Shown: in pieces, positions 9,868 through 54,871 of the stretch
How positions within the stretch are numbered: position 1 is the first letter of the stretch
Layout of the letters: each line of letters starts with the position of its first letter
Virus record (IMG/VR): IMGVR_UViG_3300010938_000012
Coordinates: 1 to 64,000 of that record
Length of the DNA stretch: 64,000 nt
Reading direction: 5' to 3' (one strand)
Source of the DNA: a virus
Notes under the pieces: model-generated
The model's input: only the letters and a program-made list of their open reading frames with translations
Databases searched by the model: none
Told to the model about the DNA's origin: nothing
Made by a program: the position numbers and the translations under genes

Positions 9868-10057
9868 TTCGTTATTTTTTCTGTCAACGGCATCTTCCCT
9901 ATATTCAAACCCTTCTATTATTTTTCCGTTCTTAACAAGGTATAATTTATAATCTTTTTGGTTTATTTTTCTGATTGGCGCTTCCTTAACTTTTTTTTGG
10001 CATTAACTTTTCGACTCGTATTTTAACAATACCCCACTCTCTAAACTTAGCATTTTT

Positions 10058-10337
10058 TTATTTTAAACTATATTTTAAAGTGCTCATATCTATACCAAGT
10101 TGTCTCGATGCTAAGGTCACAATTCTTTTTTCGCGGTCATGGGCTTCCTTTCGATTTTGGCAATCTGCAATTATTTCTTTGGTAAAATTGTTTTTACCAT
10201 ACTTTTTAACCGCTTTCACAATGAGTGTCCCCTCCCATATAACCACCATTCAAGGTATTCGTCGAATGGATGCCTTAGTAGCATTTTCCGTTTACAAGAT
10301 TTGTTATCTTGTAGAAACAATTGTACTTCTTTTTCAT
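10058..10337 (-). pseudogene. Decayed GIY-YIG (Seg-like) homing endonuclease
   Basis: MKKKYNCFYKITNLVNGKCY*GIHST..YMG, then a frameshift into KAVKKYGKNNFTKEII. Confidence 0.8.
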
Positions 10338-10338
10338 G

Positions 10339-11946
10339 TTATTCGTATTTTAAATCTATTTGGATCAAAGCCTCGTCAACATAACTTTTTAAAATAGGCT
10401 TACTGATTTTACCGACTGCGAGCAATTCTTTGTTTTCGTTATATAAGCCTACTTGCGTGATGTAGACTTTTGGGTTTCCGTAGAAGTCATCAACAATTTG
10501 GCCTTCACTTCCCGTTCGGTAACTTGGATTGTTTGTGAAGTTGTATTCTCCGTTCTTAACCCGTATGAAGTATTGCTCTATATACTCGTATTTGACCTTT
10601 CTGGCTTGAAATCCGAGGTAATCGCCGCTTGCGTCTGTGTACAGGGCTGAACCTGACAATGAAGTGAACAATTTCATGGCATTGTCCCCAGCCACATCAC
10701 TTCCCGTCACTGTCAAGAAACTGGATGACATGTCAAGCAGGTCTGCATCGAGCAATATTACTCCGAGCCTTGGGTATGACAGGCCATAAACATGGGGTTG
10801 GGATTTGTTGTAAACACCGTCCTCAAGCGTACCGGACACTATGTAGTAAATCTCCCCCCCACGACCCACAAGACGGGCCTTTGATTCGCTTACGGTCTGA
10901 TAGAACCCCGCGTATGCTTCTGCTGACAATTCTGTCTCTACGTTCAGTTTGGAGTCGTCTATCAACCTTAAGATATTCCCCGCTGCTCCGAGCCTTACAT
11001 TAGAACCGGTGTGAGCGTTCCTGTTTCCGTTGCCGGCAAGGAATTGTGAGCCGGACAGCGCGTGAAGGTTTAACTCCAAGTTCCCCTCATCCAATCTGTC
11101 TCCGAACCTGTCTCTGTTTACGTCAATGGCATAGAAGTGGTTTATTATCTTAGAGCCTATCCTGAAATGTCTTTCAGTTGGGCTTAGACACAGGCTTCTG
11201 TATTGTCCATAAACTGCATTACTTGGGGACATCCAATCATATCCGCCCAAGTCCCTGCTTCCGCTTCCATCAATGTGCCCGTATGCAATGGAAAAGTGTT
11301 TATTTGGCGCGCAGTGAGAGTTGCATGGCGTTTGATAAACAGTCCTTCTATAGCTTTCGCTTGTTTCCGTACTGCAAGTGAAGTAAGTGACCATATTTCC
11401 TACCGCACCTCCGGTTGCGTCCTGCCAAATGCCATAGTAAACCTTGTTTACCTGTGTCGGCAGTTTGTCCCCTGTCGTTAGCCTCGTGTAGACTTTACCA
11501 GAAGCAATCTCGACAGGAGGCGCCGGTGGCGTTGGTATTATTGGCGGAACTGGCGCTGATGGCGGTGGAGGCGGCGGTGTTGGCGGGATTATCACAGGCG
11601 GCTCTGGCTGTGTTGGTGGCGGAGGTACTGGAGCTGTCAATTCCAACATTAAATCGTCATAGTTAACCCCTCCCCTATAATCGTCAGCCTGTACTTGAAA
11701 GACATATTGCCCATTTATGGTTTCTATATCTGTTCTTCTTATATTATTAGAACTTACCCACTGTATTCCGTCATATTCCTGAACATTTATAGCCCAACTT
11801 GTCCCCTGTACAAATATAGGAGCTGTGTAAGTATCCGGGTATGTGCCGTTACCTGTTATCGCACCCGTTATCACAAACCTCTGTGGCTGGTCAATCGGTT
11901 GCGTAATCAACCTTACTGTCCAATTACCCTGTATGCTTATTGGCAT
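10339..11946 (-). CDS. Virion structural protein: N-terminal beta domain, Pro-rich stalk, conserved C-terminal domain
   Basis: Paralog of 12474-14033 (PSxAxYGQY, DEGNLE, YITxVGLYN..LLAVGK). Confidence 0.7.
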   Translation of the reverse strand: MPISIQGNWTVRLITQPIDQPQRFVITGAITGNGTYPDTYTAPIFVQGTSWAINVQEYDGIQWVSSNNIRRTDIETINGQYVFQVQADDYRGGVNYDDLMLELTAPVPPPPTQPEPPVIIPPTPPPPPPSAPVPPIIPTPPAPPVEIASGKVYTRLTTGDKLPTQVNKVYYGIWQDATGGAVGNMVTYFTCSTETSESYRRTVYQTPCNSHCAPNKHFSIAYGHIDGSGSRDLGGYDWMSPSNAVYGQYRSLCLSPTERHFRIGSKIINHFYAIDVNRDRFGDRLDEGNLELNLHALSGSQFLAGNGNRNAHTGSNVRLGAAGNILRLIDDSKLNVETELSAEAYAGFYQTVSESKARLVGRGGEIYYIVSGTLEDGVYNKSQPHVYGLSYPRLGVILLDADLLDMSSSFLTVTGSDVAGDNAMKLFTSLSGSALYTDASGDYLGFQARKVKYEYIEQYFIRVKNGEYNFTNNPSYRTGSEGQIVDDFYGNPKVYITQVGLYNENKELLAVGKISKPILKSYVDEALIQIDLKYE

Positions 11947-48921: not shown

Positions 48922-49740
48922 TCAATTCAAGACCTCAAATTCAGCGTCTTGAACTGTTGCGTATGAGAGTGCCAACTGGAACAACTCTTGGTTGAACTCT
49001 ATGTCGCGCACCGCAGATGCCATCGGACGGCCTTTGCGCTTCATCCCGTCCACTTTGAACCCGCCTATGGTACAGGCTTCTTGTACCCTGTTATAGACAA
49101 CCCACAGGTTGTTCCCCTCGTCTTCTGGGCGAAGGACTTGCGCCACACCAGAAACATCGGCAGCGGGCGAAACGGTCTTCCAGCGCAGGGCAATTGCTTG
49201 GCGGGTAAATCTCTGGACCTGCTCATCGGACAAGGTTACAGAAGCCATTTCTTTCTGCCTGTCCACGGCAATTTTCAAGTTGTCAAGGAAGCCCATGGCA
49301 ACCTCGAACGCCGCGCTTTCTGGTGTACCCATGTGACGTACAGAGAATTGACCAAACTCTTTGGTCGCAATGACCAAACCGTTTGAGCAAATCAAGCGGT
49401 AAATGCCGACATAAACCTGCAATCGGCTCGAACCGTCGTATGAGTTGACGATAACGACTTCTGGCTTCAACAGGTCGCCGCCGATTTCTACGGCTTCGAG
49501 CGCCCTGAGCTTTACAACGTGCTTTCCGCGGCCTTTGTTGTCGGCCTTTGCAGCACGAGCTTTGCGAACGCTGACGGAAACCAACTCAAACATCCCCAAC
49601 CGCAGGATGTTGTCCACCAAGGTACGGGTGTCCATTGTTTGATAGTGTTTGGACATTGCCTTGGAAGTTTGGAGTTCCGGGTTCAGCAGAGATACGTCTG
49701 TGGTTGCAAAAACATTGGTCATATGTTCAACAATTAACAA
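48922..49740 (-). CDS. DUF932/DUF945 family protein
   Basis: NSYDGSS..GIYRLICSNGL, RH, NLWVVYNRVQE. Confidence 0.8.
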   Translation of the reverse strand: MLIVEHMTNVFATTDVSLLNPELQTSKAMSKHYQTMDTRTLVDNILRLGMFELVSVSVRKARAAKADNKGRGKHVVKLRALEAVEIGGDLLKPEVVIVNSYDGSSRLQVYVGIYRLICSNGLVIATKEFGQFSVRHMGTPESAAFEVAMGFLDNLKIAVDRQKEMASVTLSDEQVQRFTRQAIALRWKTVSPAADVSGVAQVLRPEDEGNNLWVVYNRVQEACTIGGFKVDGMKRKGRPMASAVRDIEFNQELFQLALSYATVQDAEFEVLN

Positions 49741-50096
49741 TTAGAAATAAACAATTCGAGACGTTTCAGCACGTCGGCCCCCGTATGCCCGTCGAAATAC
49801 GGGTTTACGTCGTGCGTTTCGATGCCGTCCAAACTCGCCCAAAACTTTTCAGGCAAATGGAACGTGATCTGTCTCCCTGCTTGCGGCTGGATTCCGCAGA
49901 CAAACCAGCCTTCCCATTTTTGCCCGTCCGCGTTTCGGGAAGCCCGCCAAGACTTCGACTTGTGCGCCTGAATTAAGGCGACGAAAAGCAGACACCTTGC
50001 CTCGTACAACTCTCCAAAGGTGTGGTAGCCGTCCGAAATCATGTTTCGGTCAATTTCGGCGGCGGCGATCGCGGCGTTGATTTCGGCTACCGTCAT
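49734..50096 (-). CDS. Conserved phage hypothetical protein (WDGH-like)
   Basis: ISDGYHTFGELY, QITFHLP, FDGHT. Confidence 0.7.
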   Translation of the reverse strand: MTVAEINAAIAAAEIDRNMISDGYHTFGELYEARCLLFVALIQAHKSKSWRASRNADGQKWEGWFVCGIQPQAGRQITFHLPEKFWASLDGIETHDVNPYFDGHTGADVLKRLELFISNC

Positions 50097-50311
50097 TTCG
50101 TTTCTTCGGCCACTACCCGCCCGCCAACGGATTCCCAATCAAAGTCCGGGCGGCGGCTCTCCCAAACTTCGTAACCGCCTTGGTTCCAGCGGTTGTACCG
50201 TATTTTTTGCCACTCGCCGCCGCGCAAACGGCGGTAGATGTAGCCTTTTGTTGATACCTGTTGTGCGGCTATAATCGCAACCGCAAAAACTGCAACAATA
50301 ATGTAGGTCAT
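50093..50311 (-). CDS. Small membrane/secreted protein
   Basis: N-terminal hydrophobic segment; A-rich leader. Confidence 0.55.
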   Translation of the reverse strand: MTYIIVAVFAVAIIAAQQVSTKGYIYRRLRGGEWQKIRYNRWNQGGYEVWESRRPDFDWESVGGRVVAEETK

Positions 50312-51564: not shown

Positions 51565-51786
51565 TTATTCACAATTGTGTACAACCTCGCCGTTGTACGA
51601 TTCTACCCATGCTTGGGTCCCGTTGTTTATGAACAGGCTGTCTCCCAACTCATCTACTGTAAGGGTGTGGTTTTCGTCTGCAAACTGGATAGCGTCTTCC
51701 AATATATCGAAATGGTATTCGATAACCGGGTCAGACCAGTTGTTGTGCCAATTCTTGAGATATACCGTGAACATGGTGTGTAACAT
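51565..51786 (-). CDS. Small hypothetical protein
   Basis: Non-overlapping 3' part of the 161-aa ORF. Confidence 0.45.
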   Translation of the reverse strand: MLHTMFTVYLKNWHNNWSDPVIEYHFDILEDAIQFADENHTLTVDELGDSLFINNGTQAWVESYNGEVVHNCE

Positions 51787-51839
51787 GGTGTGTTGTTTTA
51801 TGAATGATAGGACAAAAGCGCATTCAAGCACAATACCGC

Positions 51840-52694
51840 TCAATAGTTGAAATTCTTGATTTGGAGGTTGGTGTTTAGGAACGCTCCAAAGTCTCTCTTG
51901 TGGTCGAAGTTGAAGTCCATTGCGAACATCAACTCGTCTGTGATTCCGTTGATTTTCTCCTTCCAAATTTGGAAAGCAGAGTAAACTGCGGGGGAAAACA
52001 GGCTGCTGTCGGAGAATCTGGTGTCGAGTTGTCCTGACAGTTCGTTCCAAGACTTCAAAGACGGGTTGTTGAAAAATGTTTGAACGCTTTCGTCCAGAGG
52101 TACGGTGTTGTTAACCTTGCTTTGGTATTCGCCAATCTTCTCCATGATGCGGTCTTTGTAGCGGAGAAGGTTTTTGAGGGCTGTCTCAACCCGTTTGCGT
52201 TGTTCGGCGGAGTTGAGCGCATTCCATTCCGACCCGTTCAAAGTGTCGAGGAATGCGCCGTATGCGTTTGACTCGAACGCCTCGTTCAACGATGCCACAT
52301 ACTTCTCTACCATGTTCTTGTCGAAAGATTGGTCTGCAAGGTCGTTTTCTACTGAAAGGAAAACCTTGCGAACCAAAGCAACCTTGTTGGCAGTGGGCTG
52401 TTCCTCGGAGGGGGCAGCTACAACTTCCGGCCATTTTCGCACACCTTTTGCGATTTCTGTCATGCCGTATTTTATATTGGCGAGGGACAGGTCATAATAT
52501 TTGTCCCCAACAGATGTAAGTCCTCTTCTTACACTCTGTTTTAAAGCATTCCATTGTGAGATGGACAGTACATACTCTTGTCGGTTTACGTCCGACCCTT
52601 CGAGGAGCGCGTAAGCAGCATCAAGGTCGTTTGCTGCGAGGAGATCTTCAAACTGTTGCATAATGGTCTGTAAGTTATTGGGCGACGTATTCAA
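51840..52694 (-). CDS. Protein with an N-terminal EAD11-like (effector-associated) domain
   Basis: LLAANDLDAAYALL..VLSISQWNALKQSVRRG....SLANIKYGMTEI pattern; likely ATG at 52661. Confidence 0.55.
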   Translation of the reverse strand: MNTSPNNLQTIMQQFEDLLAANDLDAAYALLEGSDVNRQEYVLSISQWNALKQSVRRGLTSVGDKYYDLSLANIKYGMTEIAKGVRKWPEVVAAPSEEQPTANKVALVRKVFLSVENDLADQSFDKNMVEKYVASLNEAFESNAYGAFLDTLNGSEWNALNSAEQRKRVETALKNLLRYKDRIMEKIGEYQSKVNNTVPLDESVQTFFNNPSLKSWNELSGQLDTRFSDSSLFSPAVYSAFQIWKEKINGITDELMFAMDFNFDHKRDFGAFLNTNLQIKNFNY

Positions 52695-53301
52695 ATTGAT
52701 ATTGACAACCTGCCGGCAAGTAATAAGCGTATGCGCGGCAAAATTCCGGGTATCTTTGTTTCAATAGAACAGTCGCCTCTCTTGCTTCTGACTTGCCTGT
52801 GTACTTTCCGTAGTGGACTACCCAGTAGTCCTTAATCTCTTGTGCGTTGTTTTGTGCCATTGCCCCATCTGGGAGCTTTGATACAAGACACCCGGCTGGC
52901 CGAGAGTTCGGGGGATATACCATTAGCTCCATTCGCACTGTCCAATACCCCTCGGTCGGAGCAGCGCTTGCGACGTACACCCTCTTTTGACTTGCTACGA
53001 CCGTGTCGCGCGACAACTCCCTTACCTGTGCAGAACAGTTGTCCGGGTCAATGAGGGTTTCTACGACGACCCTTATCTGTTTTTTAATTTCCAGATACTC
53101 CGGTGTTGCAGAGATTGTTGGCCGCTTCTCCGTCCCGTAGTATGGTAGGGCATCGCAGGGGTCTGGCGCGAGCGGAATGTTGAAAGAATGCTCTGCCGGG
53201 ATTGGGACTCTTTCTGTGATCGCCCCACAGGGAGCAGATGTCTGTTGTGCTGAAAGCAAGGTGCTGCTAAACAGCAATAAAATCGTCAGCGGTTTGTTCA
53301 T
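52675..53301 (-). CDS. Secreted protein with a C-terminal SPOR-like domain
   Basis: Signal peptide (LLSA/Q); YWVVHYGKY..KSEA....LKQRYPEF..AY. Confidence 0.55.
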   Translation of the reverse strand: MNKPLTILLLFSSTLLSAQQTSAPCGAITERVPIPAEHSFNIPLAPDPCDALPYYGTEKRPTISATPEYLEIKKQIRVVVETLIDPDNCSAQVRELSRDTVVASQKRVYVASAAPTEGYWTVRMELMVYPPNSRPAGCLVSKLPDGAMAQNNAQEIKDYWVVHYGKYTGKSEAREATVLLKQRYPEFCRAYAYYLPAGCQYQFEYVAQ

Positions 53302-54268: not shown

Positions 54269-54517
54269 TTATTTTTTCTTGAAGGTGTATTCGTTGAGGT
54301 TCGGTTCGCACGAGTCGAAGTAGAATCCCTCATCAAATAGAAGCCTGTTTATTTTCTGCATAGACGATTTATACGCGCCCCCTTCGTATCTAATGGTTAC
54401 TTCGGTGATGCCTATGTCTTCCCGAAAAACCGCCGAATGGCCAGAAGTGGCGCTGACAAACACGCGACAGTTGTTGGTGTTTTGATGGGACAGTATCTTT
54501 AAGATAATGTTAGTCAT
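54269..54517 (-). CDS. Hypothetical protein
   Basis: ORF with an A-rich leader. Confidence 0.5.
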   Translation of the reverse strand: MTNIILKILSHQNTNNCRVFVSATSGHSAVFREDIGITEVTIRYEGGAYKSSMQKINRLLFDEGFYFDSCEPNLNEYTFKKK

Positions 54518-54871
54518 TGCTTTAAGTTTGCCATGAGGTTGTTGTTACAAAGGTTCTCAAACCACTTCTCACATTCCAGTATGGTGTGGCAATATTTTAC
54601 CTCGACAGATTCTTGCTTAGGCTGTATCTGGGACATGTGGTATGTGTTTAATGGGTGCCATAGAAAGGACTTTTTGGGCAAAAAAATTGTCCGCGAGTAG
54701 AGAACAGGTATTAGCGGGGAGCGCAGGACGCAAAAACACGCAAAATGACCCTAAATTAGGGGGGGTCTAACCCCCCTTTGACCCCCGGCACAGCCCCCCC
54801 CCTGTTTTTGACACAATTTGTGTCGGGAAAGTGGGGGTATGGTCGCTTCGCGACGATCGCGCCCAGCAAGA

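Follow-up and report, generated by a model that had tools for sequence, protein, structure and literature searches.

An uncultured phage encodes a protein, P0001, in which a diverged copy of the bacterial immune adaptor domain EAD11 is joined to a conserved helical domain without enzymatic features. Proteins of the same family carry EAD11 modules closely resembling those of Saprospiraceae effectors, and the two halves of the family have different histories. By analogy with phage and viral adaptor-domain inhibitors, P0001 may be an adaptor mimic with an inhibitory outcome on the EAD11 immune wiring of the host, a reading that we consider quite possible, at a little under an even chance.

EAD11 is one of the effector-associated domains (EADs) of Kaur, Burroughs, Iyer and Aravind, which, on predictions from comparative genomics, recruit effectors to a hub through homotypic contact (PMC7159879; PMC8195603). 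In Bacteroidota it is fused to TIR, CHAT/caspase, SIR2, trypsin and kinase effectors and to iSTAND hubs. In the literature searched we found no description of phage EAD proteins and no experiment on EAD11.

The window analysed here comprises the first 64 kb of a 99,024-bp IMG/VR virus record with a CheckV completeness of 54%. Every gene-like open reading frame (ORF) of at least 150 aa in the window lies on the minus strand, and the window encodes a baseplate wedge protein, an RNA ligase and an array of 10 tRNA genes (60.3–63.4 kb). The closest cultured relatives of the baseplate wedge protein are found in Microcystis phage Mel-JY01 (46% identity) and Flavobacterium phage vB_FspM_immuto (39% identity), placing the nearest cultured relatives on Flavobacterium and, as reported, Microcystis. 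The phage looks T4-like and lytic, with no integrase seen in the searches made. Scanning for promoters and terminators gave signals at the level of shuffled sequence. Genes encoding a DUF932 protein (92 bits) and a WDGH-domain protein (100 bits) neighbour the EAD11 gene region at 48922–50138 on the minus strand; DUF932 is also conserved in two related loci described below (L002 and L003) and in Flavobacterium immuto phages.

Two minus-strand genes lie within positions 51840–53301 (Table 1). The longest ORF of the EAD11 gene begins at a TTG codon (52694), whereas the database gene call and the homologues, whose starts share an M-x-Q-F/I motif in the alignment, point to the ATG. The initial annotation had described the gene as overlapping its upstream neighbour, a secreted SPOR-like gene. 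The overlap arises from choosing the TTG as start; with the ATG, a gap of 13 nt separates the gene from the upstream stop codon (52675–52677).

Table 1 Features of the EAD11 gene region on the minus strand of the window.
Feature	Coordinates	Strand	Evidence
EAD11 + helical-domain protein gene (P0001, 273 aa); ATG 52661, stop 51840–51842	51840..52661	(-)	ORF list, database gene call, homologue starts
Diverged EAD11 adaptor domain, four helices, residues 1–75	52437..52661	(-)	Pfam, homologues, profile-profile comparison, structure match
Variable linker, residues 76–92, P/S/T/E-rich	52386..52436	(-)	Low model confidence; length and sequence vary in alignment
Conserved family-specific helical domain, residues 93–273, with K-N-F-N-Y tail	51843..52385	(-)	AF2 model, alignment
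208-aa orphan, upstream neighbour, signal-peptide-like N-terminus	52675..53301	(-)	ORF list; absent from syntenic loci
73-aa gene, downstream neighbour, no family match	51565..51786	(-)	BLASTP synteny with L003

The upstream gene keeps only part of its earlier description. Its 208-aa product has a start that resembles a signal peptide, as judged by inspection only, and contains several cysteines. The SPOR-like reading was rejected, as PF05036 was unmatched at E ≤ 10 in all six frames of the phage record, under settings in which controls matched. Apart from a weak match to DUF716, the protein matched nothing in Pfam at E ≤ 1, and it had no match in NCBIfam, PHROGs, PDB sequences or GenBank phages. 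A single-sequence AF2 model was unusable (pLDDT 35.6), and the gene is missing from both L002 and L003. Downstream, the 73-aa product matches no known family; by BLASTP it is 46% identical over 71 aa to the product of L003:10817-11038, which adjoins the EAD11-family orthologue of that locus (10001–10813). Judged from this sequence synteny, the small gene may be a functional partner of the EAD11 gene. A longer ORF of 161 aa (51565–52050), overlapping the 3′ end of the EAD11 gene, is an artefact, with conservation limited to its last 73 codons.

The N-terminal domain of about 75 aa had been likened by eye to EAD11. EAD11 (PF19964) was indeed the top Pfam match of the protein read from the TTG start, spanning profile positions 2–74 of 80, with a score (15.6 bits, E 0.015) that lies under the Pfam gathering cut-off of 26 bits for this family. 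The ATG-start protein scored 14.7 bits; when the phage record was searched in all six frames, the match reached 18.4 bits (E 1.8e-4). The Pfam search leaves the window protein below the family threshold on its own sequence, while placing most of its relatives inside it: all 14 homologues that have the N-terminal segment matched EAD11 (best E 4.7e-17), nine of the ten scored singly exceeded the cut-off at 35–52 bits, and the orthologues at three loci, L002, L003 and L004, reached 54, 49 and 54 bits, respectively.

Profile and structure comparisons gave the same assignment. A profile of the close group of homologues matched a profile of bacterial EAD11-TIR proteins in hhalign with a probability of 98% (E 1.9e-13), the match being driven by the N-terminal 75 columns. 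With P0001 as a single sequence, the comparison with the full-length profile of bacterial EAD11-TIR proteins yielded a probability of 10%, a low value because the unrelated C-terminal domains dilute the alignment, which makes the profile-profile comparison the better test. Residues 1–78 of the ESM Atlas model of the window protein superposed on the N-terminal EAD11 of Bacteroidota proteins with TM-scores of 0.80–0.84. The Atlas EAD11 clusters matched, mostly from Bacteroidota, carry SIR2, TIR, iSTAND, trypsin, kinase or NARF domains. Language-model features from the Atlas scored 0.90 against EAD11 clusters, and the ten best feature matches that bear a family assignment all belong to one family or clan. 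In the AF2 model the domain consists of four helices (residues 2–9, 13–21, 27–45 and 54–72; pLDDT 86–95), and like EAD11 it is small, all-alpha, non-enzymatic and terminal. A PDB sequence search found no solved EAD11 structure.

On the strength of the homologues, the profile-profile comparison and the structure match, we assign the N-terminal domain to EAD11 as a diverged copy. That the likeness is a chance resemblance of a helical segment, as the Pfam score under the cut-off and the low single-sequence hhalign probability might suggest, seems very improbable to us: P0001 shares full-length homology with proteins that score 35–54 bits at their N-termini, and the profile, superposition and Atlas feature matches above argue against it.

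The AF2 model of P0001 has an overall pLDDT of 86. A disordered linker (pLDDT below 50 at residues 82–90) separates EAD11 from the C-terminal domain, which comprises ten helices, mostly at pLDDT 84–94, divided by VIA-align into a pair of four-helix bundles (about residues 91–186 and 187–268, or 187–273 with the tail included). A wide VIA-align search returned only generic bundles, namely vinculin, talin, the FAT domain, HPt domains and designed proteins, with Z-scores of at most 8.2. Foldseek found no match at E ≤ 0.001 in PDB or BFVD, the ESM Atlas held none, a PDB sequence search gave no meaningful match and the domain belongs to no Pfam, PHROG, NCBIfam or PADLOC family. Three of its residues, P200, W205 and K236, are invariant in the family alignment and form no catalytic pattern. 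On these family and fold searches, the domain is non-enzymatic and has no detected relative outside the family, in agreement with the earlier description of a helical remainder lacking a recognisable enzyme.

The same description had called the protein effector-less. This holds in that no enzyme is present, but the protein is not an adaptor-only protein, because it also carries a conserved domain of ~180 aa. A domain of this size and conservation exceeds the needs of a simple plug, which suggests that it has an activity of its own. At its extreme C-terminus, 13 of 17 family members end in K-N-F-N-Y (51843–51857, minus strand, in the window). The tail is exposed and of low pLDDT in the model and, on that model, might serve for docking or act as a degron.

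Among 1.8e9 representative proteins, an exhaustive phmmer search recovered 16 family proteins of 97–297 aa. Genomic context was retrievable for three family loci, and all are phage or phage-syntenic. Two of them, the 66.7-kb IMG/VR contig L002 and the TARA scaffold L003, are syntenic with the window: in both, the gene sits between homologues of a small gene (54514–54681 in the window) and the DUF932 and RNA-ligase genes, with the local order rearranged. Neither of the cultured relatives, Mel-JY01 and immuto, has a family member or any EAD11. Searches of GenBank phages (tblastn with P0001, P0006 and P0014) and a pattern scan of 185,579 species genomes found no family member. A pattern scan of species genomes with P0018 and scans of IMG/VR with P0006, P0079, P0078 and P0020 likewise gave no match. 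Since it is absent from both cultured relatives, the gene is accessory within a clade of uncultured phages.

The phage record contains a single EAD11 over its 99 kb, as does the record of L002. Any EAD11 partner must therefore be supplied by the host or encoded in the portion of the genome that the record lacks. Under the ‘EAD principle’, a further copy of an EAD is expected in the operon or genome, on a core component (iSTAND, VMAP or GAP1) or on effectors (PMC7159879). No such second copy was found within the phage record, which is 54% complete, or within that of L002.

The initial annotation also took EAD11 as a hint of a Saprospiraceae-like host. The link of the domain itself to Bacteroidota and Saprospiraceae was borne out, both by the Atlas clusters and by the ~95 bacterial EAD11-TIR and EAD11-CHAT proteins described below. 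The step to the host was not: among the 1.8e9 representatives and the bacterial EAD11 proteins collected here, the best bacterial match of the window's EAD11 reached 29% identity (E 0.025), and the nearest cultured relatives infect Flavobacterium and, as reported, Microcystis. With no close bacterial counterpart of its EAD11, a Saprospiraceae host for this phage is not established.

This divergence would also fit a role within the phage, apart from host immunity, in which the EAD11-like domain serves as a self-association or partner-binding module of a regulatory or assembly protein. Small helical bundles are common interaction modules, the structural matches of P0001 are generic, and the gene lies among uncharacterised small genes. 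Its accessory nature and its lack in Mel-JY01 and immuto weigh the other way, and so does the kinship of other family members with bacterial effectors, which is hard to reconcile with a purely internal task; we regard such a role as unlikely.

That kinship is clearest for P0006, a 275-aa family member from a 139-kb JGI contig. Its EAD11 is 64–89% identical to that of ~95 bacterial proteins of 264–349 aa, all of which carry TIR or CHAT behind an N-terminal EAD11; several of them are named as proteins of Saprospiraceae metagenome-assembled genomes (MAGs). These bacterial EAD11-TIR and EAD11-CHAT proteins match the PADLOC TIR and CHAT models. Identity of the P0006 domain is 87–89% to bacterial EAD11-TIR proteins and 84–89% to the EAD11 of three of the Saprospiraceae effectors, P0020, P0029 and P0049. 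The EAD11 domains of P0011 and P0012 are 59–63% identical to those of bacterial EAD11-TIR proteins, and overall some family members have an EAD11 that is 58–89% identical to that of Saprospiraceae TIR/CHAT effectors. The six members with a host-like EAD11 (P0006, P0011, P0012, P0078, P0079 and P0099) were compared at the protein level. The EAD11 domains of the window protein and of P0002 form a separate long branch with no close bacterial match.

The two domains of the family differ in their conservation and in their trees. Mean pairwise identity is 23% in the N-terminal domain versus 33% in the C-terminal domain; within the close group, the values are 7–33% (47% for the P0001/P0002 pair) versus 41–59%. 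By these identities, the EAD11 module is the faster-evolving part of the protein. In the C-domain tree P0006 falls in the clade of the window protein, while in the EAD11 tree it groups with P0011, P0012, P0078, P0079, P0099 and the bacterial effectors. Approximately unbiased (AU) tests were run on clade groups defined with the identity matrix already in view and on bacterial rows chosen for their likeness to P0006. In these tests the C-domain data rejected the N-type grouping (p 0.0096), and the N-domain data rejected both the C-type grouping (p 0.0068) and the family's EAD11 as a monophyletic group apart from bacterial EAD11 (p 0.00014). The discordant trees indicate repeated exchange of the adaptor module with bacterial effector genes, the C-terminal domain being retained. 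It is this interleaving of the N-domain trees, together with the high identities to TIR/CHAT effectors, that fits poorly with a task confined to the phage.

Further bacterial-type EAD11 architectures were seen. P0018, an NCBI protein of 1481 aa, carries REC, Trypsin_2, TPR, EAD11 and TIR_2 domains, with an internal EAD11 directly before the TIR that is 73% identical to the EAD11 of P0006. P0045 and P0057 (265–266 aa) join a Saprospiraceae-type EAD11 to a different helical C-terminal domain of ~190 aa, unrelated to that of the phage family, and may represent a second class of enzyme-less EAD11 proteins.

The proposed inhibition starts from four points that the data support directly: the identity of the two domains, the phage setting of the gene, the presence of one EAD11 in the phage record and the exchange of EAD11 modules with bacterial effector genes. 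From these we infer, as the likeliest mechanism, that the phage protein would bind host EAD11 proteins and inhibit them. During infection, it would dock through its EAD11 onto EAD11-tagged immune proteins of the host. It would deliver to them a bulky inert or blocking domain in place of an enzyme, and for this reason host EAD11 proteins would be capped or sequestered. The hub would then be unable to assemble with its effectors or to fire them. An extension of this scheme, which we put forward tentatively and hold to be doubtful on balance, treats the whole family as a modular anti-immune cap: a conserved, phage-specific blocker that would be retargeted by swapping in EAD11 modules captured from host TIR/CHAT effectors.

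The same docking might instead serve to use the host machinery and not to block it. The C-terminal domain would then be cargo, a target-binding module or an effector module, and either the host's TIR, CHAT or kinase enzymes would be redirected, or a non-enzymatic phage effector would join the hub and so exclude competing phages. EAD-tagged bacterial proteins are by definition cargo delivered to the hub (PMC7159879). A C-terminal domain better conserved than EAD11, with a conserved and exposed K-N-F-N-Y tail, is what a binding function of its own would be expected to leave, and P0045 and P0057 illustrate that bacterial-type EAD11 does occur with other non-enzymatic helical domains. Against such a use, the pattern scan of species genomes did not recover the C-terminal domain, which also matched no defence model, and the phage appears T4-like and lytic, with no integrase in the searches made. 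We therefore think this reading improbable, to about the same degree as a phage-internal role. Roles beyond the readings weighed here, of which chance likeness is one, retain only a small share of our expectation.

Compared with bacterial EAD11, the phage N-terminal domain is likewise small, all-helical, non-enzymatic and terminal, its homology resting on transitivity through the homologues and on structure. It differs in being phage-encoded, in being the sole EAD11 of its record and in being fused to a helical domain and not to an enzyme or hub. The layout of the whole protein is that of the Saprospiraceae MAG effectors P0020, P0029 and P0049, which at ~270–290 aa also consist of an N-terminal EAD11, a linker and a C-terminal module; in those proteins the module is a TIR or CHAT enzyme, whereas in the phage protein it is the non-enzymatic helical domain.

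The initial annotation had regarded decoy action by an adaptor domain as an undescribed mode of anti-defence. A precedent exists in pCARD, a CARD-only protein of Acinetobacter phage 133, which was found experimentally to inhibit a CARD-gasdermin defence (Wein et al., PMC10312443). In both cases a phage, T4-like in the case of pCARD, carries a copy of the domain that connects sensor and effector in a host defence, without the effector enzyme. The two differ in that pCARD has 141 aa and consists of a CARD-like domain only, with inhibition established by experiment, whereas the phage EAD11 protein adds a domain of ~180 aa and is known from sequence and models. Among animal viruses, herpesviral vFLIPs are adaptor-domain proteins that compete in homotypic assemblies. 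Poxviral pyrin-only proteins, as cited by Wein et al. (PMC10312443), are dominant negatives of host adaptor domains in such assemblies. The parallel with these two groups is one of mechanism only; their folds and hosts are unrelated to those considered here and we claim no homology.

The EAD11 domain and the principle of a phage adaptor decoy, with pCARD as its one experimental precedent, are thus already known. New are the architecture of EAD11 plus a conserved helical domain, its location in phages and the evidence that modules were exchanged with those of host effectors. Given the pCARD precedent, the gain lies in breadth and in a new architecture and not in a new concept. Knowledge of EAD-coupled conflict systems comes almost solely from comparative genomics (Kaur et al. 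2020, 2021; PMC7159879; PMC8195603). Phage proteins with a host-type EAD11 and no enzyme provide an independent line of evidence, from evolution, that phages are targets of these systems and that their vulnerable link is the adaptor. If the family is a modular cap, its members would be the first proteins to inhibit EAD-coupled conflict systems, which multicellular Bacteroidota carry and which still await validation, and would provide direct evidence for homotypic docking of EADs. A phage EAD11 protein paired with a near-identical host EAD11-TIR or EAD11-CHAT protein, such as P0006 with P0020 or P0049, supplies reagents for studying homotypic docking and its inhibition.

Conservation within the bacterial effectors themselves is uneven. 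In an alignment of 34 bacterial EAD11-TIR proteins, the EAD11 part has more invariant columns than the TIR part. The EAD11 domains of these proteins are 64–89% identical to that of P0006, and whole-protein identity to P0020 ranges from 36 to 73%. Such high conservation of EAD11 fits a docking partner that these proteins may share.
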